NCBI GenBank assembly: GCA_031274895.1
Contig: JAISPM010000021.1
Span: 141 to 64,140, forward strand
DNA length: 64,000 bases
From: Alphaproteobacteria bacterium
GTDB taxonomy: Bacteria > Pseudomonadota > Alphaproteobacteria > WRAU01 > Hepatincolaceae
Direction of reading: 5' to 3'
The notes below the pieces were generated by a model. That model did not search any database and was not told the origin of the DNA. It saw only the letters and a program-made list of their open reading frames with translations. Below, in pieces: positions 8,326 to 50,966 of the stretch. Within the stretch, counting starts at the first letter, position 1; each line of letters begins with the position of its first letter. Made by a program: the position numbers and the translations under genes.

Positions 8326-9471
8326 CTAATTAGTATAGCCATCCCAAAAATTAAGATTCCCCTGCAGTTTCAGCAACTCTTCAATGGTTTTATTAGCAGT
8401 TTTAAAATTGCTTTCCCGCTGCATAATATCTAATTCCACAAGATTTTTTGTCGCATTTTTTTGCGTGGAGTTTTGTAAAATATTATGGGCTTCTAAGAAT
8501 TTATCATGAACAGCATATATCCCTGCAATTAAAAGGTTATTTTGTTCTATGTCATTGTAGGCTGATTTTACATCTGCAATAATTTTACTATCATCAGATA
8601 CTTCATAATATTTTTGCCAAAGTTTAATTACCTCAAAGGATTGATTGGCTTTCCATAGGCTTTTTAAAACATCAATAATGCGATTGTTTTTGCTTTGTCC
8701 AACATAAATATTTATTAATAATTCTGCCATTGGGGCAAAATCAGGATATTCTTTAAGAATTCTTTGGGCAACATCTTTAGCCTTTTCAGCGTCAGTTTTA
8801 AGCAAAAATTGTGCGTAAAAATATCCCACTAAACAGAAATACTTTTTGTATTCTTCATGATTATTATCTTTAGCCGATTTTAAAACATTATATAAATAAA
8901 CAATTTCAGAATCCAAGGTTTTATTTTTATAAACCAGTTCAAACATCTCGCCGACAAACCATAGAGAATCCTCTTGAAACATAATTCCCTTCTTGGCATA
9001 AATAATAAAATTTGCTGAGTCTTTTTGAGCTTTATAAATCAAGCAACGATATTTCAACAATAAGGTTTCATTATAACTTTTCACCCGCACTTTATCTATT
9101 GCGCCCAGTGCCTTATCGTATTTTTTAATCAGCAAAAGATTGTTTATTTCTTTAATTTGTTTAAGAAATTTATTGTTATCGGCATGTTTTAATATTTCTA
9201 TAAGGGTATTTTTTTCCTTAATACTTTCCATAGAGTTAATAAAACTAATAATATTGCGAATATAAACCTCGTGCCGTATTTTATAGATAATGCTTTTAAG
9301 GATTCTTCTAATAAGGTGAATCGGCAACCAAATAATTGCCACTAAAAGGATTAGTTTATCCAGTGTAGTGTAAATAGCATAATTGGCAATATCTAAATTA
9401 ATGTCTATTTTTAAAAAATAAACACCAACCAGAATTACTGCAAAAATAATTAAGTATATAAGATATTTCAT
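8326..9471 (-). CDS. HemY-N-like / TPR-like inner-membrane protein (COG3898-like)
   Basis: Two N-terminal TM helices followed by helical-repeat sequence. It lies downstream of a Mic60-like gene, as in the alphaproteobacterial pair. This is a weak motif-level call. Confidence 0.4.
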   Translation of the reverse strand: MKYLIYLIIFAVILVGVYFLKIDINLDIANYAIYTTLDKLILLVAIIWLPIHLIRRILKSIIYKIRHEVYIRNIISFINSMESIKEKNTLIEILKHADNNKFLKQIKEINNLLLIKKYDKALGAIDKVRVKSYNETLLLKYRCLIYKAQKDSANFIIYAKKGIMFQEDSLWFVGEMFELVYKNKTLDSEIVYLYNVLKSAKDNNHEEYKKYFCLVGYFYAQFLLKTDAEKAKDVAQRILKEYPDFAPMAELLINIYVGQSKNNRIIDVLKSLWKANQSFEVIKLWQKYYEVSDDSKIIADVKSAYNDIEQNNLLIAGIYAVHDKFLEAHNILQNSTQKNATKNLVELDIMQRESNFKTANKTIEELLKLQGNLNFWDGYTN

Positions 9472-31936: not shown

Positions 31937-32185
31937 ATGAATTATAAATCAGTCCGTTTACCCGCAGATTTTGTAGAAGAAATAAAAGAACAAGCTGACA
32001 GAGAATTTAGAACTGTTCCGCAACAAATCCAATATTGGACAGAACTTGGCAGAAAAAAAGCACTAAGAGAATGGCAATTACAACAAATGCAAGAAGGGTT
32101 AGATGAAATAGAAAGAGGGGAAGTTGTTTCACATGAAGAGGCTATGAAAGAAATTCAAGCCATTTTAGCCGAATTTAAGGATTAA
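31937..32185 (+). CDS. Type II antitoxin (ParD-like / RelB-type)
   Basis: N-terminal VRLPADFVEEIKEQADREFRTVPQQIQYW resembles ParD-like antitoxins. It lies immediately upstream of a ParE/RelE toxin. Confidence 0.7.
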   Translation: MNYKSVRLPADFVEEIKEQADREFRTVPQQIQYWTELGRKKALREWQLQQMQEGLDEIERGEVVSHEEAMKEIQAILAEFKD

Positions 32186-32189
32186 TGAT

Positions 32190-32471
32190 ATGTGTAAGGT
32201 TATTTGGTCTAAAAGGGCAATCGCTCAATATGGAGGTAGTGTTAGGTGGTATGGAAAACAAGGAGGAGTTTCTCTGGCGAATAACTTTGAACAACATATA
32301 GGTAGTTGTCTTAGTATATTAGCAAGGAATCCTTACATGGCAAGGCAAGTGGAGGGGAAGCCAAAACTTAGAGAATATGTGGTGCAGAAGTATCCATTTA
32401 TAATCTCTTATTATGTTGAAAATGATAACATTAATATTGCATCCTTTTTACACCAAAGCAGGGATAAATGA
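32190..32471 (+). CDS. parE: Type II toxin, RelE/ParE family
   Basis: 93 aa. The VIWSKRAIAQY... and ...REYVVQKYPFIISYYVENDNINIASFLHQSRD pattern is typical of the ParE_toxin family. Confidence 0.75.
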   Translation: MCKVIWSKRAIAQYGGSVRWYGKQGGVSLANNFEQHIGSCLSILARNPYMARQVEGKPKLREYVVQKYPFIISYYVENDNINIASFLHQSRDK

Positions 32472-33401: not shown

Positions 33402-34793
33402 ATGAGTGAAACTAAAGAATTTATTGTCGCCGTAACCGCCTGTCCCACGGGTATTGCCCATACCTACATGGCAGCCGAAGCCTTAAAAATTGCCGCTAAA
33501 AAGCTGAATGTGGATATTAAGATAGAAACCAACGGTGCAAGTGGTGTTGATAATCCGCTCACTAAAGAAGACATCAAGCAAGCCAAGGGCGTGATTTTAG
33601 CCATAAATCGTAATGTGGAAACCGCCAGATTTAACGGCAAACAATTAATTCAAGTGGGTGCAGGCGAGGCAATCAGACAGGCGGAAGATTTAATAAAATC
33701 TATCCTCAACGGCAAGGGAGTTGTTTATAAAGAAGCAGCCACTGCAGAATCCTCAGTGCAAACAGTAGGTAGTGGCTTTTATAAACACCTTATGAGTGGT
33801 GTTTCGTATATGTTGCCGTTTGTAATTGCCGGTGGAATATTAATTGCCCTAGCCTTCGTGATAGATAAACTCAGTGGTGTAGAAGCAGGTGGAGGACTTG
33901 GCAGCACCACAGAATTCGCCAAAATGTTTATGAATATTGGTGGCACGGCGTTTGGATTTTTTGTGCCAATTTTAGCAGCCTTTATTGCCTTTAGTATTGG
34001 GAATCGCGCGGCATTAGTTAGTGGATTCGTAGGTGGTGGCTTAGCACTTTCAGGTGGTTCAGGATTTTTAGGAGCCATTATTGCGGGCTTTTTAGCAGGA
34101 TACATCACATTATGGTTAATTAAAGCCTTAGCCAACTTACCAAAAAGTTTAGATGGTATTAAGGCGATTCTTTTCTACCCTGTGCTAAGTGTTTTATTTG
34201 TTGGTTTATTAATGTTAATTATTAATATCCCTATGAAATTTATTAACGAAGGCATGATATATTGGCTCAACAGCTTAGGCGATACCAACAGAATTATTTT
34301 AGGATTAATTCTTGGCGGTATGATGGCGGTTGATATGGGCGGACCAATCAATAAAGCTGCTTATGTATTTGGCGTGGCAAGTTTAGCAGGAGCAGAAAGC
34401 ATAGGCGGTTCGCATGTGATGGCGGCGGTAATGGCAGGCGGTATGACACCACCTTTAGGCATTGCCTTGGCAACAACCTTTGTTAAAGGGAAATTTTCTG
34501 AAAGTGAGCGCGAGGCAGGAAAATCTAACTACGTAATGGGCTTGAGCTTTATTACCGAAGGTGCAATTCCTTTTGCCGCCACCGACCCGCTTAGAATTAT
34601 CCCATGTTTTGTGGCAGGTAGTGCTGCGGCAGGTGCATTAAGTATGCTGTTTAATATCGGTCTACCTGCTCCCCACGGCGGCATTGTGGTAATGTTTTTA
34701 TCAACCAACCCTTGGCTTTATATGTTGGCTGTGTTGATTGGTTCAATAATTACTGCAGGACTTGTTGGAATTTTCAAACGCAAAAGCGTTTAA
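33402..34793 (+). CDS. fruA: PTS fructose transporter subunit IIBC
   Basis: IIB motif VAVTACPTGIAHTYMAAEAL followed by a polytopic IIC domain. No IIA/FPr is present in the window. Confidence 0.85.
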   Translation: MSETKEFIVAVTACPTGIAHTYMAAEALKIAAKKLNVDIKIETNGASGVDNPLTKEDIKQAKGVILAINRNVETARFNGKQLIQVGAGEAIRQAEDLIKSILNGKGVVYKEAATAESSVQTVGSGFYKHLMSGVSYMLPFVIAGGILIALAFVIDKLSGVEAGGGLGSTTEFAKMFMNIGGTAFGFFVPILAAFIAFSIGNRAALVSGFVGGGLALSGGSGFLGAIIAGFLAGYITLWLIKALANLPKSLDGIKAILFYPVLSVLFVGLLMLIINIPMKFINEGMIYWLNSLGDTNRIILGLILGGMMAVDMGGPINKAAYVFGVASLAGAESIGGSHVMAAVMAGGMTPPLGIALATTFVKGKFSESEREAGKSNYVMGLSFITEGAIPFAATDPLRIIPCFVAGSAAAGALSMLFNIGLPAPHGGIVVMFLSTNPWLYMLAVLIGSIITAGLVGIFKRKSV

Positions 34794-34806
34794 AATTCTC
34801 CTGACC

Positions 34807-34866
34807 CTCCAAATTCCCCTTCGCTAGCGAAGGGGGCCTTGCCTTAGGTAAGACGGGGTAGTGGTA
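34807..34866. repeat. Type-A repeat, half copy A5 (forward)
   Basis: ctccaaattccccttcgctagcgaagggggccttgccttaggtaagacggggtagtggta, located between convergent fruA and the SIR2-TPR gene. Confidence 0.85.
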
Positions 34867-34868
34867 TT

Positions 34869-36995
34869 TTATTCCTTGGGATATTTAGATAGAATGCTAT
34901 CATATAATATTTTTAGTTTATCTATAGGGATTACACTAGAGGAGTTTGCTTGCACTTTTTTATCTAGTGGTAGAATCCAAATAGAGTGGTCATTTGTTGT
35001 ATCTAAATATAGAAGTTTTTCAGAGATTGATTTTAATTCTTTATAACCATTAATCCAACCAGAGTGTTTAAATAATAATGATATAAAGAAAAAATAATAA
35101 GCCCCAGATTCATTTAATATACTAGATTGTATATTATTTATTCCATCTAAAAATAGTTCATAGCTTTTATCTAAATCATCGTGTAAAAGATAAGCTAGTG
35201 CTAAGTATTTACAATATTGAAATATCCTATGAGTATCATTGTATCCTTTACTTATTTTAAATGCATATTCAAGATTTACAATAGCTTCAGGATACATTCC
35301 AATCATTATTTCTGCTCTTCCTAAATCATAAAGGCATCCTGTATATATAGGATAAGATTGTTCGTGGAACATATCTGTTTTATTATTAGATAATATTTTT
35401 TGAGCCTCTTTCCATTGTCCTTCACTATTTAAAATAATTCCTTTTAAATTATCTATATAGTATCCTAAAGTTATTTCACCCGAGGGTAATAATATCTTTG
35501 CTTCTTTTAACTCTTGATATGCTTTTTTGTAATAGTCTTTACCTAATCTTACTAAATATGTAGCAATATTGTAATGAGACCTTGCAACTCCACCAATATA
35601 TCCACACTCTTTTCTTAATTTTATGCTTTTATTATAACACTTAATAGACATATTAGGATTATTCATTTTTGCATAAATATTTCCTAATTGATTAAGAGAA
35701 TTTGCTTGGCTCCTAACATGCTTTAAACGAGAGTCATATTTATAGGATTTGTAATAATAATATAACGATTTAGAATAGTCTATTCTTTCTCGAAATAGAC
35801 CTCCTAATCTAAAACAGAAATCACCATATATTTTATTATAAAATTTTGGTGAAAATAAACTCTTATTTATTTGAAGAAAAGAGAGAGAATCTTTGCACAA
35901 TAAAATGAATTCATCATAATTTGTGCTTGTCTTATATCCTGATAATATTAACTGTTCCTTGATTGAAAATAGTAATTCTTTGTTTAAACAATTAACTTCT
36001 TTATAGGCGGTTTCCAAATATTTCTTACCAAGGGTATATTTAAAAAAAAGCTCATTACTCATTGCTCCTGCAATGTAGTCTTTAATATCTTTATGCTTAC
36101 TTTTCCAAATATTAAAAGTATCCTCCCAATTATAATCATGTTTTTTAATATCAATCTCAATGCCAAAACGATTATAAAATAAGTCTTTCATAAATTGGCA
36201 AGTGTTCACTTTTATAACAACCCCATTAACTAACTTATTTTTAAAAGGATTTTTTTCATACTCCCAATCTTTAATATCCTGAATAGTTACATCTTGTTTA
36301 TCGGTATAATCAATAACAATAACTTGTTTTGTAATATCAATTTCAGCAATATAATTACTAATATCAAATCTATCAGAAAAACTATATCCCATTATCAATA
36401 CAACATCATGATTACCAGAGGCATAAAGATGTTGGATTATACCTTTTCTTTCTTTAAATAGACTTTCTTGAGTAATTTTTTCAAGGGTTGTTCTAATAGA
36501 ATCTTGGTTATCTATTGTTCCATGAACTTTAAATAGTTGTTTTTTATTTGGGTTAGAAATATTAGAAAAATGCTCTTCTTTATAATATTTTTCATACTCA
36601 ACTTTTTCTTGCTGTAGAGCTTTTTCAATTAACAAATCAAAATTAGTAGTATAAATTTCATCCACCCAACTTTTATTCGTCATTTTTGCTATGATGGTAT
36701 GAATTGTATTAGGTTCTCCATATTTAAAAAAATCTAATAGAGAAAAGTCATTTTCAGTATAGCTTAAAACAGATTCAATTATTCTCTCAAAAGGAAAATC
36801 TGTTTCTTTAATTATTCTATTAATAAACTCTACATCTTCATTATCAAACAAAAAAGGCAGAAATTCTTCATAAAACTTATAAACTATTGGGACTCCTGAA
36901 TCAAGAGAAATTCCTGCACCACAAAAAATAGCAATTTTCTTTTCTGATAGCTCATTAATTATATTTTGGTATTGCTCAAAAATTGCATGTTCCAT
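34869..36995 (-). CDS. SIR2-like (SIR2_2-type) domain protein fused to C-terminal TPR repeats
   Basis: IAIFCGAGISLDSGVP, IYTTNFDLLIE, LFKVHGTID and VLIMGYSFSDRFD, followed by ~350 aa of TPR-like repeats. An ATG at 36995 is preferred, because the track start (GTG at 37040) overlaps trm112. The gene is very AT-rich. Confidence 0.75.
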   Translation of the reverse strand: MEHAIFEQYQNIINELSEKKIAIFCGAGISLDSGVPIVYKFYEEFLPFLFDNEDVEFINRIIKETDFPFERIIESVLSYTENDFSLLDFFKYGEPNTIHTIIAKMTNKSWVDEIYTTNFDLLIEKALQQEKVEYEKYYKEEHFSNISNPNKKQLFKVHGTIDNQDSIRTTLEKITQESLFKERKGIIQHLYASGNHDVVLIMGYSFSDRFDISNYIAEIDITKQVIVIDYTDKQDVTIQDIKDWEYEKNPFKNKLVNGVVIKVNTCQFMKDLFYNRFGIEIDIKKHDYNWEDTFNIWKSKHKDIKDYIAGAMSNELFFKYTLGKKYLETAYKEVNCLNKELLFSIKEQLILSGYKTSTNYDEFILLCKDSLSFLQINKSLFSPKFYNKIYGDFCFRLGGLFRERIDYSKSLYYYYKSYKYDSRLKHVRSQANSLNQLGNIYAKMNNPNMSIKCYNKSIKLRKECGYIGGVARSHYNIATYLVRLGKDYYKKAYQELKEAKILLPSGEITLGYYIDNLKGIILNSEGQWKEAQKILSNNKTDMFHEQSYPIYTGCLYDLGRAEIMIGMYPEAIVNLEYAFKISKGYNDTHRIFQYCKYLALAYLLHDDLDKSYELFLDGINNIQSSILNESGAYYFFFISLLFKHSGWINGYKELKSISEKLLYLDTTNDHSIWILPLDKKVQANSSSVIPIDKLKILYDSILSKYPKE

Positions 36996-37023
36996 TTCGT
37001 ATTGCCTAATTTTTTCATTGTTT

Positions 37024-37197
37024 TTACTCCGCAACCGCACTACTGCGCAACAACATCGGTATACCGTTATCTATAGGAAAAAACACTTTTGCTTTAGGCG
37101 AATAAAGCATATGTTTTTCCGCATTATACACCAACTCGCCACCGCTGATAGGACACTGTGCGATTTTTAACAATTCTAAAATTTCATCTTTTTGCAT
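37024..37197 (-). CDS. Trm112-family (UPF0434) small zinc-ribbon-like protein, 57 aa (below the ORF-track cutoff)
   Basis: My own translation is MQKDEILELLKIAQCPISGGELVYNAEKHMLYSPKAKVFFPIDNGIPMLLRSSAVAE. The ...CP..G.L...PIxxGIPxxL pattern is typical. Confidence 0.7.
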   Translation of the reverse strand: MQKDEILELLKIAQCPISGGELVYNAEKHMLYSPKAKVFFPIDNGIPMLLRSSAVAE

Positions 37198-37252
37198 GTT
37201 CAAACTCTATGTTTAATTTCAACAATAAAATTATAAGAATAATTAAAACATC

Positions 37253-37281
37253 TTGCAATTTAAAAAAAACTACATTACTAT
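37253..37281 (+). promoter_or_regulatory. Putative promoter of tRNA-Gly
   Basis: TTGCAA, 17 nt, then TACTAT, ending 17 nt before the tRNA 5' end. Confidence 0.35.
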
Positions 37282-37298
37282 TTCACTATCGTATTTAT

Positions 37299-37373
37299 GC
37301 GGGTATAGCTCAGAGGTAGAGCGCAACCTTGCCAAGGTTGATGTCGAGGGTTCAAATCCCTTTGCCCGCTCCA
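37299..37373 (+). tRNA. tRNA-Gly (anticodon GCC), CCA encoded
   Basis: Acceptor stem gcgggta/tgcccgc, D-arm agctcagaggtagagc, anticodon loop cttgccaag, T-arm gagggttcaaatccctt, and a 3' tCCA. Confidence 0.9.
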
Positions 37374-40232: not shown

Positions 40233-42536
40233 ATGTTTAATAAATTATTAAATGTATTTTTTCGCAGTGTTCTTTATAAAAAGTTTTTTTTAAATAAAAA
40301 ATACAATTTATTTGAAACCCCTATAGATTTATCTATTTTTGATAGTATTAACTATACAGGATACTCTATTTTATACGATGAAATCGATGTTTTCGGCAAA
40401 AAATACACCCTGAAAGAATTTTTAAATATCGCAATTTTATCACCGCAGGTTTTAGAGTATCTGCATAGCTTTTATTGGCTTTCTAATCTAAAAGCTCTAT
40501 CTACGCCCGCAGCAAGCGATAAGGCGTATCATTTAATTGATGCTTGGAGTTCTAAATTTAAAAATTTTAATGCGCTTACTTGGCGGGAAGAAATTTTAGC
40601 AGAGCGGGTTTTTCAACTTACTCTTTATGGTAGCTTTGTTATTAAAAATAAAGATAATATCCAAAAGGCGAAAATCAAAGCCATTATTAACGCCAATGTT
40701 AATCATTTAATTAATTTATATAAACTGCATAAACTAAAAGTTTATAAACTACAAAATAAACTTAAAATGTCTAAGGCTTTGTTGGCTGTGATTTTTTCTA
40801 ACAAAACCGCTGCCTTAAATAAAAAATCAGCAGTGGAAAGACTGATTCGCAATATTGAGTTAGATATTAAAGAAAATATTTATAATGATGGCGGGCATGT
40901 TTCAAGAAATCCCAGCCGCACTTTAGCCTATCTGGAAGACTTGCTGCAGGTATATTATTTGCTGAAAGACAGAGAAGGCATAAACATTGACTTCATTCGC
41001 ACAACTATTGATAGAATTTCACTGTTTATCAGAAGTATGCGCCACCCTGATGGCTGCTTGGCTATATTTAACGGCGGACACGAATCCACAAAAATTAAAA
41101 TAGATTATCTGTTGGCACTTAGCCATGTTGCTACAAAACCATCCATGGTCTTGCGTGATAGTGGTTATACGAAACTTATCTCGCAACATACCGCAATTAT
41201 TTTTGATGTTGGAGCGAGGGTTAAAAATAATAATTCTTTGCTATCCTTTGAAATTGCTATTAATGATAAGAAAATTATTACAAATTTAGGCAATAATATC
41301 TTTGATGCCAACTATTCGTTTTTAAACAATGAACAAATGGCACGCACGCATAATTCTTGTTTGGTGTTAAAAATTAATAATCGCATATTATCTTTCGATT
41401 TAGGCGAATCTAACTTAAAAATTGAAAGACGCTCTGAAGACAACTGGGATATTATCCGATTCGTCTACACAGGTTTTAACAATATTGGAATCACTTATTA
41501 CAGAACCATTTACGTTTCTAAGCGAGACTACACCTGCGTGTTGGGCGAGGATATGATATCAGTGCAAAAAGGCTCGGAAACCATTATTCAAGAGGCATTT
41601 TTAAGGTTTCATTTGTCTCCTGAAATTAAATCGGTGGAACTGTATAAAAAATCTAAAATGGTGCTGTTTCCGCTTAATGGACATCGATATATTTTATCTT
41701 CAAGTGATAATAAAGTTGCCTTGTCTAAAAATGTCTATGCCGCAATTGAAGGTGAGTTAATTAATTGTTATACTATTGATATTCCTTTTAATTTAAATCA
41801 TAAAGTTATTAAAAACGAATGGAGTATTGCCATGGAAGAAGATATTAAGAAAATATCAGCCCCTGATACGGTTAAAATTTTAACGGTGGTGGATATGCAA
41901 AATTCCTTTTTGAAAGAGGATGGTATCTTAAGTGTAAAAAATGCAGAACCACTCATTGCAAAAACTAATAGTTTTTTTGATTCGCTCCCGCCTGATTTCT
42001 TTGAAGCCATTATATTTACCCAAGATACTCACTTTGCTAATGAGTATAAAGATTCTGCTGAAGCAGGAACTTTCCCGTTGCATTGCGAATATAATACAAC
42101 GGATTGGCAGTTATCCTTAGATATGGATAAGGTTAAAAACAAATCGCAAATTTACAAACTGTATAAAAATAAATTTAGCATGTGGGAAAATGGAGTTGCA
42201 GCGAGCAACTCTGTTGGTCTTGACTTTAAAAATTATTCCGTTTACAAAAATTTATATAAAGTATTAAATTCTGAAGATGAAGTGATTTTTGAAAATATGG
42301 ATGACTTATTAGCATCTTATAAAAATAAAAAAGTAGAAATTTATATAATGGGTGTGGCATCGGATTATTGTGTTAAATATGCTCTTGATGGCTATTTAAA
42401 AAAAGGATTTGGTGTTTCGGTTATTCAAGATTTAACCTGTGGTATAAATAAGGAAATCATTGATGTTTTAAAAGACGATTACGCAGGACATTCTGATTTA
42501 TTAAATATAAAATTGGTTAAAGCAAGCAATTTATAA
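40233..42536 (+). CDS. Heparinase II/III-like protein fused to a C-terminal nicotinamidase/isochorismatase (PncA-like) domain
   Basis: The N-terminal ~560 aa carry DGGHVSRNP and HPDGCLAIFNGG motifs of the heparinase II/III-like family. The C-terminal ~210 aa have ILTVVDMQNSF, FTQDTHF and IMGVASDYCV (cysteine-hydrolase D/K/C triad context). Confidence 0.65.
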   Translation: MFNKLLNVFFRSVLYKKFFLNKKYNLFETPIDLSIFDSINYTGYSILYDEIDVFGKKYTLKEFLNIAILSPQVLEYLHSFYWLSNLKALSTPAASDKAYHLIDAWSSKFKNFNALTWREEILAERVFQLTLYGSFVIKNKDNIQKAKIKAIINANVNHLINLYKLHKLKVYKLQNKLKMSKALLAVIFSNKTAALNKKSAVERLIRNIELDIKENIYNDGGHVSRNPSRTLAYLEDLLQVYYLLKDREGINIDFIRTTIDRISLFIRSMRHPDGCLAIFNGGHESTKIKIDYLLALSHVATKPSMVLRDSGYTKLISQHTAIIFDVGARVKNNNSLLSFEIAINDKKIITNLGNNIFDANYSFLNNEQMARTHNSCLVLKINNRILSFDLGESNLKIERRSEDNWDIIRFVYTGFNNIGITYYRTIYVSKRDYTCVLGEDMISVQKGSETIIQEAFLRFHLSPEIKSVELYKKSKMVLFPLNGHRYILSSSDNKVALSKNVYAAIEGELINCYTIDIPFNLNHKVIKNEWSIAMEEDIKKISAPDTVKILTVVDMQNSFLKEDGILSVKNAEPLIAKTNSFFDSLPPDFFEAIIFTQDTHFANEYKDSAEAGTFPLHCEYNTTDWQLSLDMDKVKNKSQIYKLYKNKFSMWENGVAASNSVGLDFKNYSVYKNLYKVLNSEDEVIFENMDDLLASYKNKKVEIYIMGVASDYCVKYALDGYLKKGFGVSVIQDLTCGINKEIIDVLKDDYAGHSDLLNIKLVKASNL

Positions 42537-44697: not shown

Positions 44698-45144
44698 ATG
44701 AGAATGACGACAAAACATTGTGTTTTTCTATTAACTCTTTTATTGCTAATGGCTATGATTACATTTATTGCAATAGCTTCATATAAATTATTAGATACTA
44801 CAGATACAAGTTCTACCGTAGAAACTCTTGCTAGAATTGATTTATCAATGATTCCAATATTTATAACAATGTTTGGAGTAGTGTTAGCAATAATTGCATT
44901 TTATAGTTATTCAAGTATTAAAGAACATGCAATGTTAAAGGCTGAGGAAATTACAAAGAAAATGTTAGGGATACACAAAAAGAAAGTGTCTGATTTATTA
45001 GAGAATCATGAAAAGAAATTTCAAACTCTACATCAAAATTTATTGGAAGATAGAAATGAATACAGCAAAATGGTTAAAGGTTTACAGGGTGATATAAATA
45101 CATCTAAATTGGAAATAATAGAGGAGAGCATGAAAAATGAGTAA
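44698..45144 (+). CDS. Hypothetical 2-TM protein with a cytoplasmic coiled-coil tail
   Basis: Two hydrophobic helices (CVFLLTLLLLMAMITFIAIA; IPIFITMFGVVLAIIAFY), then a K/E-rich helical tail. It overlaps the next gene by 8 nt. Confidence 0.5.
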   Translation: MRMTTKHCVFLLTLLLLMAMITFIAIASYKLLDTTDTSSTVETLARIDLSMIPIFITMFGVVLAIIAFYSYSSIKEHAMLKAEEITKKMLGIHKKKVSDLLENHEKKFQTLHQNLLEDRNEYSKMVKGLQGDINTSKLEIIEESMKNE

Positions 45145-45643
45145 TACTTTTTTTGAAAACCTATCTCAAGTGGAAGATAAAGAAAGAGGATTTGTTGACC
45201 TTGAAAAACTGGCTGAATTAGAGAATATTCAAGTTATTTATTCTAAACACAAAGAATATAAAGATATTTTTTCAGGATTAATAAAAATAGTTGATAGTAG
45301 ATATGTAATAATCATCAATGGTGACCATTCACATAATAGGAAAAGGTTCACGCTTGCTCATGAGTTAGCTCATTATTTTTTACATAAAGAAAAAATTGAG
45401 AAAGCCGCTATTGTTGATGATGCTTTGTATAGAAGTGGGCTTGCTAACGATAATATAGAGGTAGCTGCAAATAAATTTGCTTCTAAAATTCTTATGCCTG
45501 AAGCCTTAGTTAGCTTTCATATTAATGAAGCTAAGAAACTTAATATAATTGATATAGCGGGTATATTAAATTATGTCGCTGAAAAATTGCAAGTATCTAA
45601 GCAAGCCTTAGCTATAAAAATAGGGGTTCCTTTCGATAATTAA
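45137..45643 (+). CDS. ImmA/IrrE-family (DUF955, M78-like) zinc metallopeptidase
   Basis: RFTLAHELAHYFLH (HExxH) and EVAANKFASKILMPE, plus a C-terminal ...LQVSKQALAIKIG segment typical of the family. Confidence 0.75.
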   Translation: MSNTFFENLSQVEDKERGFVDLEKLAELENIQVIYSKHKEYKDIFSGLIKIVDSRYVIIINGDHSHNRKRFTLAHELAHYFLHKEKIEKAAIVDDALYRSGLANDNIEVAANKFASKILMPEALVSFHINEAKKLNIIDIAGILNYVAEKLQVSKQALAIKIGVPFDN

Positions 45644-49793: not shown

Positions 49794-50966
49794 ATGTCGC
49801 AGAGCAATCAAAAACCTTGGTTATCAATAGAAGAACAGATTCAATTGTTAAAAGATAGAAATTTAATTATTGAAAATGAAATCTATGCTAAAAATATACT
49901 AAGTAGAATTTCTTACTATCGTCTAATCTCTTATAGATTCCCTTTTTGTCAAGAAAAAGACAAAAATATTTTTAAGGATGGAACTAAATTTGAAGATTTA
50001 GTTAATTTATATAATAAAGATTCAGAATATCAAGCACTTTTATATCAAGTGTTAAAAGAAATAGAAATATTTTTTAGAACCCAACTTATTTATTGCTTTG
50101 CTAAACAAGATATTTGGTTTTATAAAGATAGAAGCAAACTAAACCAAAAAGATAAAGAAGCGAAAAGGAATGTAGATTCTTATATTAAGAAAATGAATGA
50201 TAGCGTATGTAATGAGACTAATGTTCATATATCTTATTACATAGAACAACATGATAAAGGAATAGCCCCTTATAAAATACCTAATTGTAAATATAGTTAT
50301 AAAGAAATGGGTTTACTTTGTAATAAGTGCAGGAAGAAGGGGGAAAAATTAGACTCAACATGTAGCGATGATAAATGTAATGGCAGAATAGTCAAAGTTA
50401 GATTGTGTAAGTGCTATCCAAAAGCATGGGTATCTTTAGAATCTTTTGATTTTGGTATGTTAATAGATTTATATTCTGGTATTAATGGATTTATTAATAA
50501 AAGCGAAATATCCTCTAAATATTTAGAATGTGATATTGAATTTGGTAAGTTTTTTAATATAGACGAAAAATATTTGTATAATAAAGATAAAAGACCATTT
50601 TTAGATTTACTAAGAGATATAAAGGTAATCCGTAATATAATAGCTCATCATGATAAAGTTATAGATAGGTATTCCTTTAAAGAAGCAAAATCGATTGATT
50701 TTTTAAAAATACATTATGAGAAAGATAACAAGGTTTTAGAATTACTAAATGATATGAATACATACAGACATACCTTCCTTCCATATTTTTTAGTAATTAA
50801 GTATTTTTTAGATATTATGTTTCAAAAAGACCCAAATTTAGGATATCAAGTTAATATTTTTACAAGATTTTTAGACTTCTCTAAATTAAATACAGAAATA
50901 TTATCGCTTGATAATTTACCAAAAGAGGTTTTTGAACCTTCTAGGGAACGGACTGTTATATCTTAA
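49794..50966 (+). CDS. Abi-like protein (AbiD/AbiF, Abi_2 family) with an internal Cys-cluster insert
   Basis: KPWLSIEEQIQLLKDRNLIIENEIYAKNILSRISYYRLISY, PKAWVSLESFDFGMLIDLYS and LRDIKVIRNIIAHHDKV match the Abi_2 pattern. The gene is very AT-rich. Confidence 0.75.
   Translation: MSQSNQKPWLSIEEQIQLLKDRNLIIENEIYAKNILSRISYYRLISYRFPFCQEKDKNIFKDGTKFEDLVNLYNKDSEYQALLYQVLKEIEIFFRTQLIYCFAKQDIWFYKDRSKLNQKDKEAKRNVDSYIKKMNDSVCNETNVHISYYIEQHDKGIAPYKIPNCKYSYKEMGLLCNKCRKKGEKLDSTCSDDKCNGRIVKVRLCKCYPKAWVSLESFDFGMLIDLYSGINGFINKSEISSKYLECDIEFGKFFNIDEKYLYNKDKRPFLDLLRDIKVIRNIIAHHDKVIDRYSFKEAKSIDFLKIHYEKDNKVLELLNDMNTYRHTFLPYFLVIKYFLDIMFQKDPNLGYQVNIFTRFLDFSKLNTEILSLDNLPKEVFEPSRERTVIS

Follow-up and report, generated by a model that had tools for sequence, protein, structure and literature searches.

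A compact SIR2-TPR protein in a Rickettsiales-related alphaproteobacterium is a candidate single-chain, DSR-like defence protein

The SIR2-TPR gene and its domains

The window analysed here is a 64-kb stretch of contig JAISPM010000021.1 from an alphaproteobacterial genome of the Hepatincolaceae (assembly GCA_031274895.1). Its minus strand carries, at positions 34869-36995 (stop codon included), an intact open reading frame (ORF) encoding a 708-amino acid protein in which an N-terminal SIR2_2 domain is followed by tetratricopeptide repeats (TPRs), hereafter SIR2-TPR. An initial annotation, made from the sequence alone, had proposed this gene as a single-gene NAD+-depleting defence sensor set between housekeeping genes. 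The flanks are as it described, with fruK and fruA (PfkB and phosphotransferase system (PTS) IIB+IIC, respectively) on one side and trm112, tRNA-Gly(GCC) and ubiE on the other. An alternative, longer GTG start exists at 37040; because it would overlap the trm112 stop codon (37024-37026), the ATG at 36995 is the likely start.

The SIR2_2-type motif set listed in the initial annotation is present in full, with GAGIS at residue 26, TTNFD at 116, KVHG at 156 and GYSFSD at 203, and Pfam SIR2_2 (PF13289) matches residues 113-218 with an E-value of 1.4e-14 (54.8 bits; cut-off 24.5). The TPR-like character ascribed to the C-terminus is likewise borne out by TPR_12 (1.8e-10, 41.3 bits; cut-off 30.1) and TPR_1 (1.2e-06, 28.5 bits; cut-off 27.8), both above their cut-offs. 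A sequence scan of SIR2-TPR found no Walker A motif, no membrane or hydrophobic segment and no signal peptide, and no NTPase Pfam model matched the protein.

The N-terminal domain (residues 1-285; 36141-36995, minus strand) is a SIRim-type Rossmann domain as judged by Pfam, the PADLOC ThsA model and Foldseek. Its only cysteines are C25 and C266 and it therefore lacks the four-cysteine Zn ribbon of canonical deacylating sirtuins. Alignment with solved structures places Asn118 of the TTNFD motif (codon 36642-36644, minus strand) on the TTNYD asparagine of ThsA, and His158 of the KVHG motif (codon 36522-36524, minus strand) on the KMHG histidine of ThsA and on H146 of KomC, which is the residue altered in PDB entry 9xvc. 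Both residues, the predicted catalytic pair, are invariant in 81 family members.

The remainder of the protein is a helical TPR solenoid of about 21 helices (residues 290-704; 34884-36128, minus strand), the presumed sensor and regulatory module. Within the close subfamily of full-length relatives described below, one stretch of this solenoid, residues 451-480 (KSIKL..CGYIGG..R..Y), is conserved as strongly as the catalytic core, suggesting an interface for regulation or oligomerization. In the same subfamily, variability is highest in the last third of SIR2-TPR, approximately residues 526-708, which on this ground is the candidate ligand-binding region.

Predicted structure and structural neighbours

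An AlphaFold2 monomer model of the full-length protein, generated with a 70-sequence alignment, has a mean pLDDT of 93.4 and a pTM of 0.91. It consists of a Rossmann-type domain (residues 1-285) followed by an uninterrupted helical stack spanning residues 290-704. No β-sheet domain is present after residue 285 in this model and, together with the missing Walker A motif, the all-helical nature of everything beyond residue 290 led us to reject the presence of a hidden NTPase.

A separate model of the N-domain (pLDDT 92.7) was compared with the PDB by Foldseek. The first 34 ranks are all occupied by antiphage SIR2 NADases with TMq values of 0.49-0.65, namely ThsA from three species, KomC, the SIR2-APAZ protein of SPARSA, DSR2 and SIR2-HerA, while canonical sirtuin deacylases start at rank 35. 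The N-domain is thus of the antiphage-sirtuin-type fold. The NAD pocket on which the initial annotation depended is supported by these neighbours as well as by the alignment of Asn118 and His158 with ThsA and KomC.

For the full-length model, the best Foldseek matches are the TPR superhelix of LGN/Pins (TMt 0.54-0.71) and full-length DSR2 chains. DSR2 is the only full-length structural match, with alignments of 800-920 columns and E-values of about 2e-7. A PDB profile search recovered the TPRs of LGN, kinesin light chain and RapF, the match to RapF-type peptide receptors being weak (E 6e-4).

Comparison with named SIR2 systems

DSR2 is the closest described counterpart in overall organisation. 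Like SIR2-TPR, it is a single polypeptide with an N-terminal SIR2 domain carrying an Asn/His site, a C-terminal all-helical solenoid, no NTPase and no partner gene, and its SIR2 domain superposes on the window N-domain at TMq 0.49-0.62. In DSR2, the SIR2 domains form a tetrameric core, the solenoid C-terminal domain binds monomeric tail tube protein, and N133 and H171 are essential (PMC11087589, PMC11850899). DSR2 is, however, about 1000 amino acids long and has distinct middle and HEAT-like C-terminal domains, whereas SIR2-TPR is 30% shorter and its solenoid is a canonical, LGN-like TPR array. The Dsr2 model of PADLOC has no match to the window protein at E <= 1 and is not among the 25 families listed for 70 relatives; true DSR2 fragments encoded beside one relative (locus L015) served as positive control and score 3e-185 and 4e-136 with the same model. 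The Dsr1 model does not match the window protein either and gives marginal matches (E >= 3e-06) to 6 of 70 family members.

Taken by itself, the SIR2 domain is matched best, in sequence as well as in structure, by Thoeris ThsA (PADLOC E 1.3e-15; PDB 8wc0, E 1.6e-06; Foldseek TMq 0.56-0.63). The PADLOC match covers the SIR2 part only, aligning residues 9-208 with positions 10-198 of a 478-position model. In contrast to ThsA, which has a SLOG (or Macro) domain binding a signal made by ThsB, SIR2-TPR contains no SLOG domain, and no ThsB/TIR gene lies next to it, its neighbours being fruA and trm112. Avs5 and the SIR2-STAND and SIR2-NLR proteins resemble SIR2-TPR in joining a SIR2 effector to C-terminal repeat sensors, including TPRs, with an antiviral pattern-recognition logic, but they carry a central STAND/NACHT NTPase that drives oligomerization, while SIR2-TPR has no P-loop. 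The SIR2 domains of KomC (Kongming; profile E 3e-08, structure TMq 0.55-0.65), SIR2-HerA (Nezha) and SPARSA SIR2-APAZ belong to the same antiphage clade. These are multi-gene systems whose SIR2 component is controlled by partners (KomAB, HerA and a short pAgo, respectively), none of which was found for SIR2-TPR. Finally, the PADLOC candidate PDC-S65, also a single-gene entry, has a model that matches the SIR2 core of the family (window protein E 2.6e-09; other members down to 4e-17); in the window protein this match spans only about 65 residues (95-159) of a 592-position model, and PDC-S65 is not a full-length relative.

Overall, a PADLOC scan of the window protein and 70 relatives returned SIR2-core and generic TPR matches but no full-length named family. 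Canonical Sir2 and CobB models from NCBIfam and Pfam gave E-values of 6.6e-06 and 0.0055, both far below their cut-offs, and NCBIfam otherwise yielded weak matches. We found no paper in the literature that names or tests a non-STAND SIR2-TPR protein, related papers covering STAND/NLR proteins, DSR2, SAMD9 and FAM118. One report lists TPRs as one type of domain to which SIR2_2 proteins are fused (PMC12700824), and eukaryotic SIRim fusions with NACHT and TPR have been described (bioRxiv 10.1101/2024.09.18.613514).

These comparisons divide the earlier claim of distinctness in two. SIR2-TPR does stand apart from the named systems in having no full-length PADLOC family; as a new minimal architecture it does not hold up, given that DSR2 already provides a precedent for a SIR2 domain joined to a helical-repeat sensor without an NTPase, and that the architecture recurs in at least 237 sequence clusters (see below). 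The novelty lies in the family, which is distinct, compact, TPR-based and apparently uncharacterized, and of which the window copy is a divergent member in an unusual host.

The SIR2-TPR family and its genomic company

A word-indexed protein search identified 371 relatives of SIR2-TPR. Thirteen of these form a close full-length subfamily (33-43% identity, 85-97% coverage, 692-726 amino acids), the few named sources of which are Fibromonadales, Treponema and Bacteroidia. More than 100 further matches are SIR2_2-TPR proteins of 400-900 amino acids from many phyla, with Methanosarcina and Rhodocytophaga among the names of more distant members. No database sequence exceeds 43% identity to the window protein. 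When 1.84 billion representatives were searched exhaustively with phmmer, there were 5341 matches at E <= 1e-3 and 237 at E <= 1e-30, the latter being clusters at 50% identity, and the SIR2-TPR architecture is therefore common. Source annotations describe its members only as 'SIR2 family protein' or 'tetratricopeptide repeat protein'.

The genomic context of relatives was inspected by hand in 12 loci, and in several of them defence genes lie close by. One relative (P0005, L014) is encoded 255 bp upstream of a Hachiman pair (HamA 6e-83, HamB E = 0). Another (P0009) is located between a split DSR2 and a 914-amino acid TIR-TPR protein, with an Mrr-like gene nearby (L015), and has the same gene context on a second contig (L016). 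P0011 (L025) follows a Gabija-like OLD-family ATPase and a UvrD helicase, P0026 (L023) is 2 kb from a CAP12-PCTIR TIR gene, and P0015, itself split, is found about 5 kb from a Cas9-like HNH protein (L017). Two relatives adjoin another SIR2_2 gene (P0006 in L012 and P0067 in L021), the second in the company of a caspase-like protease, DUF4238 and a transposase. Mobile elements account for three further loci: P0004 (L018) adjoins a tyrosine integrase and RhuM in the context of a Bacteroidota integrative and conjugative element, P0014 (L024) is part of an element with integrase, relaxase and MobC, and P0096 (L022) is part of a Methanosarcina element with integrase and a D5-type primase. The context of P0002 (L009) is uninformative. 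GC content was compared for six loci, and in each of them the homologous gene falls below its own contig.

The initial annotation had also stated that SIR2-TPR has neither an NTPase nor a partner, and this agrees with the absence of Walker A, NTPase and SLOG matches reported above as well as with the genomic contexts. When the ORFs lying within 4 kb were compared all-against-all across 10 loci, no shared partner gene emerged, which supports a stand-alone single-gene module. No tblastn match to SIR2-TPR was found in sequenced phage and plasmid collections, IMG/VR contigs gave only two weak matches confined to the SIR2 domain, and the viral structure library BFVD returned only generic giant-virus TPR proteins.

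The split DSR2 of L015 (4348-8004) lies directly upstream of P0009 and consists of a 438-amino acid ORF corresponding to Dsr2 model positions 4-437 and a 691-amino acid ORF corresponding to positions 529-1221, the latter overlapping the start of P0009 by 4 bp. This DSR2 is either frameshifted or naturally split.

Acquisition of the gene

SIR2-TPR is a horizontally acquired insert that is absent from the closest relatives. Genomes of relatives were found by a scan with the adjacent UbiE protein, taking one genome per species, and comprise two termite-gut Alphaproteobacteria metagenome-assembled genomes (MAGs), L003 and L001, with UbiE identities of 89% and 85%, and the 'Rickettsiales endosymbiont of Ecdyonurus torrentis' (L002; 70%). 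All three keep the order trm112 (minus strand), tRNA-Gly(GCC), ubiE-ubiB. The gene preceding trm112 is lptB in L002 and fruK in L003, and in L001 trm112 is preceded by fruK-fruA with a 200-bp spacer. An empty site, which the initial annotation had proposed to look for at the fruA-trm112 junction, was found: none of the three genomes has SIR2-TPR at this junction, and tblastn sees no remnant of it. Against L001, the closest fruA-containing relative, blastn homology stops at 34778 and restarts at 37054, so that a window-specific segment (34779-37053) stands in for about 250 bp there. Since the gene is missing at the junction in three relatives, its gain in the lineage of the window is the most economical reading. 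The alternative that it is a conserved, syntenic housekeeping gene does not agree with these comparisons.

The composition of SIR2-TPR is in keeping with the AT-richness noted at the outset. Its GC content is 0.261 and its GC content at third codon positions (GC3) of 0.166 is the lowest among the 56 ORFs of the window (z about -2.8).

Two features that had been taken as signs of an island did not withstand comparison. The proximity of tRNA-Gly(GCC) (37299-37373, plus strand; ARAGORN) is uninformative, because the trm112-tRNA-Gly-ubiE block is conserved in relatives that lack SIR2-TPR, which rules out the tRNA gene as integration site. The insert is separated from the tRNA gene by trm112, and neither an integrase nor flanking att-like direct repeats were found around the insert. 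The second feature, a palindromic intergenic repeat at 34807-34866 between the convergent fruA and SIR2-TPR genes, had been regarded as a boundary. The 64 kb contain this dispersed repeat, which is about 55 nt long, five times (at approximately 19151, 21182, 21335, 34817 and 43628). It is found on one side of SIR2-TPR only, and was thus rejected as an island border. The copies share the stem ATTCCCCTTCGCTGGCGAAGGGG and the tail CGGGGTAGTGGAA but vary in a second hairpin, and none was found in the 20-kb loci of the two closest relatives. The repeat may represent an element of the REP or RPE type that is expanding in the lineage of the window, and the copy at 34807-34866 may act as a terminator hairpin.

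On its other side, SIR2-TPR starts 28 bp from trm112 (37024-37197, minus strand; 57 amino acids; Pfam Trm112p E 2e-08), its conserved upstream neighbour, and both genes are probably on one transcript. A consensus scan found no promoter of SIR2-TPR's own clearly above chance. The best sigma-70-like match, TTGCAA-17-TATAAT (37230-37258, minus strand; 10/12 positions), lies upstream of trm112, and by this pattern match SIR2-TPR may be read through from trm112. A functional partnership with Trm112 was rejected, trm112 being present in all three relatives that lack SIR2-TPR.

The adjoining fructose locus also varies among these genomes. The fructose PTS gene encodes 463 amino acids (IIB+IIC) in the window (33402-34793, plus strand) and 625 amino acids with an extra N-terminal region in L001 (4710-6587); L003 has no fruA, and L002 has neither fruK nor fruA. 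Gain or erosion of the fru locus itself is under way in the lineage of the window.

Proposed mechanism and alternative explanations

The explanation we favour, with moderate confidence, is that SIR2-TPR is a single-chain, DSR-like abortive-infection or defence protein, a candidate phage sensor and NADase in one polypeptide. By analogy with the mechanism shown experimentally for DSR2 (PMC11087589, PMC11850899), on which our proposal is modelled, we infer for SIR2-TPR an NADase activity, a trigger, autoinhibition, oligomerization and a defence phenotype. In the resting state, the SIR2_2 NADase with its Asn118 and His158 would be kept inactive by its own TPR solenoid, by the oligomeric state of the protein, or by both. 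Upon infection, the solenoid would bind a phage protein or an extended peptide, most likely via the variable C-terminal third. Binding would alter conformation or assembly and so switch on NAD+ hydrolysis, and the resulting NAD+ depletion would halt phage replication at the expense of the infected cell.

Several points weigh against this explanation. The proposal presumes phage pressure on a host that resembles a symbiont related to the Rickettsiales. The association with defence islands comes from the 12 hand-inspected loci and has no statistical control. Further, the global fit to DSR2 is poor (TMq of about 0.25, rmsd of about 25 Å), so that while DSR2 can be aligned over its full length, it is the domain order that is common to both proteins and the geometry that differs. 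The strong conservation of residues 451-480 is easier to reconcile with an interface for regulation or oligomerization than with a sensor under rapid evolution. As no PADLOC family matches over the full length, nothing beyond the SIR2 domain can be transferred by homology, and no experiment on any family member was found in the searchable literature.

A different role in genetic conflict, which we consider unlikely, is the strongest of the alternatives. SIR2-TPR could act against plasmids or conjugative elements, could serve a mobile element for addiction or as a toxin, or could sense a small peptide signal through its TPRs as in RRNPP-type receptors. In favour of such a role are the location of several homologues on integrative or mobilizable elements, the weak RapF-type match of the TPR profile and the ParE-like toxin genes found near relatives in two loci. 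However, there is no cognate antitoxin or conserved neighbour, and every stand-alone SIR2-repeat protein characterized so far, that is DSR2, senses a phage protein (PMC11087589).

It is very unlikely that the gene is an inert or decaying acquisition without present function in this genome. The 708-codon ORF is intact, all invariant family residues are kept and the fold is predicted with high confidence; what speaks for decay is the lowest GC3 of the window, the lack of an own promoter clearly above chance and the one relative that is split (P0015, L017).

Rickettsiales-like symbionts commonly use proteins with TPR or ankyrin repeats as effectors, and the genomes closest to the window are those of termite-gut Alphaproteobacteria and a 'Rickettsiales endosymbiont'. 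SIR2-TPR might accordingly be secreted by an intracellular symbiont, its TPRs binding a eukaryotic host protein and its SIR2 domain depleting host NAD+ or ADP-ribosylating or deacylating a host target; the eukaryotic LGN/Pins proteins are indeed the best structural matches of the TPR part. We rank this explanation after decay and regard it as highly improbable, because the homologues with named sources come from free-living lineages (Fibromonadales, Treponema and Bacteroidia and, further off, Methanosarcina and Rhodocytophaga) and adjoin Hachiman, DSR2 and Gabija-like genes or ride mobile elements, SIR2-TPR carries no signal peptide or membrane segment, and the two closest relatives do not have the gene.

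Least probable of all is a housekeeping or regulatory sirtuin, a CobB-like deacylase or ADP-ribosyltransferase whose TPRs recruit cellular substrates, for which the Sir2/CobB matches below cut-off are set against the missing Zn-binding Cys4 module, a SIR2_2 domain whose structural neighbours are antiphage NADases and not deacylases, and a gene that is non-syntenic, missing in relatives and compositionally foreign.

Beyond the single protein, a broader proposal can be made, which we put forward tentatively and rate at slightly under an even chance. SIR2_2-TPR proteins may constitute a large unnamed family (at least 237 clusters at 50% identity) of NTPase-independent single-chain pattern-recognition receptors in Bacteria and Archaea, in which direct capture of a phage protein or peptide in an LGN-like TPR groove would release the NADase. 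Such a family would parallel DSR2 in compact form and might be the prokaryotic analogue of SIRim-TPR fusions in eukaryotes, with the window adding a case in which a Rickettsiales-like symbiont with a reduced genome acquired such a receptor.

Other insertions in the window and in related genomes

A second ORF of low GC content (0.251; GC3 0.176) at 49794-50966 (plus strand) encodes a 390-amino acid protein with the Pfam domain Abi_2 (AbiD/AbiF-like abortive infection; E 4e-30) and looks like a second single-gene, defence-like islet in the window. Between lptB and fruK, at 31937-32471 (plus strand), a ParD-like antitoxin (82 amino acids, E 2e-06) and a ParE toxin (93 amino acids, E 9e-09) are encoded. 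This pair is absent at that position in L001 and L003, the latter having a ParA-like gene instead. A ParE-like ORF is also located 270 bp from the SIR2-TPR relative in L017.

In L001, the segment between tRNA-Gly and ubiE (7304-9362) contains a gene resembling type II methyltransferases (PADLOC MTase_II, E 3e-08), a restriction enzyme gene with weak similarity to Tsp45I (Pfam E 2.5e-04, below cut-off) and an AhpD-like gene. This insertion indicates that the trm112/tRNA-Gly neighbourhood is a variable spot taking up defence genes in this clade.

Two further ORFs of the window stand out. A 168-amino acid protein encoded at 45137-45643 (plus strand; GC3 0.189) contains a Peptidase_M78 domain (ImmA/IrrE-like; E 1.5e-19) and may be the remnant of a regulatory pair from a prophage or mobile element. 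The 767-amino acid protein encoded at 40233-42536 (plus strand) has a heparinase II/III-like domain at its C-terminus (E 6e-13) and also contains an isochorismatase-like domain (E 1.7e-09), a fusion that is unusual for a small alphaproteobacterial genome.

Implications

SIR2-TPR does not open a new category of mechanism. If validated, it would extend the NAD+-depleting defences by a compact (about 700 amino acids) SIR2 sensor-effector that has neither a partner nor an NTPase. Compared with the large C-terminal domain of DSR2, its canonical TPR sensor should lend itself more easily to dissection and re-engineering, and a small system in which one protein couples a TPR ligand to NAD+ cleavage would be attractive for studying how repeat sensors gate sirtuin NADases. 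For the organism, the window records the gain of SIR2-TPR in a small-genome, Rickettsiales-related termite-gut bacterium and, taken together with the nearby Abi_2 and ParDE genes and the restriction-modification insertion in a sister genome, suggests active turnover of defence genes in this lineage.

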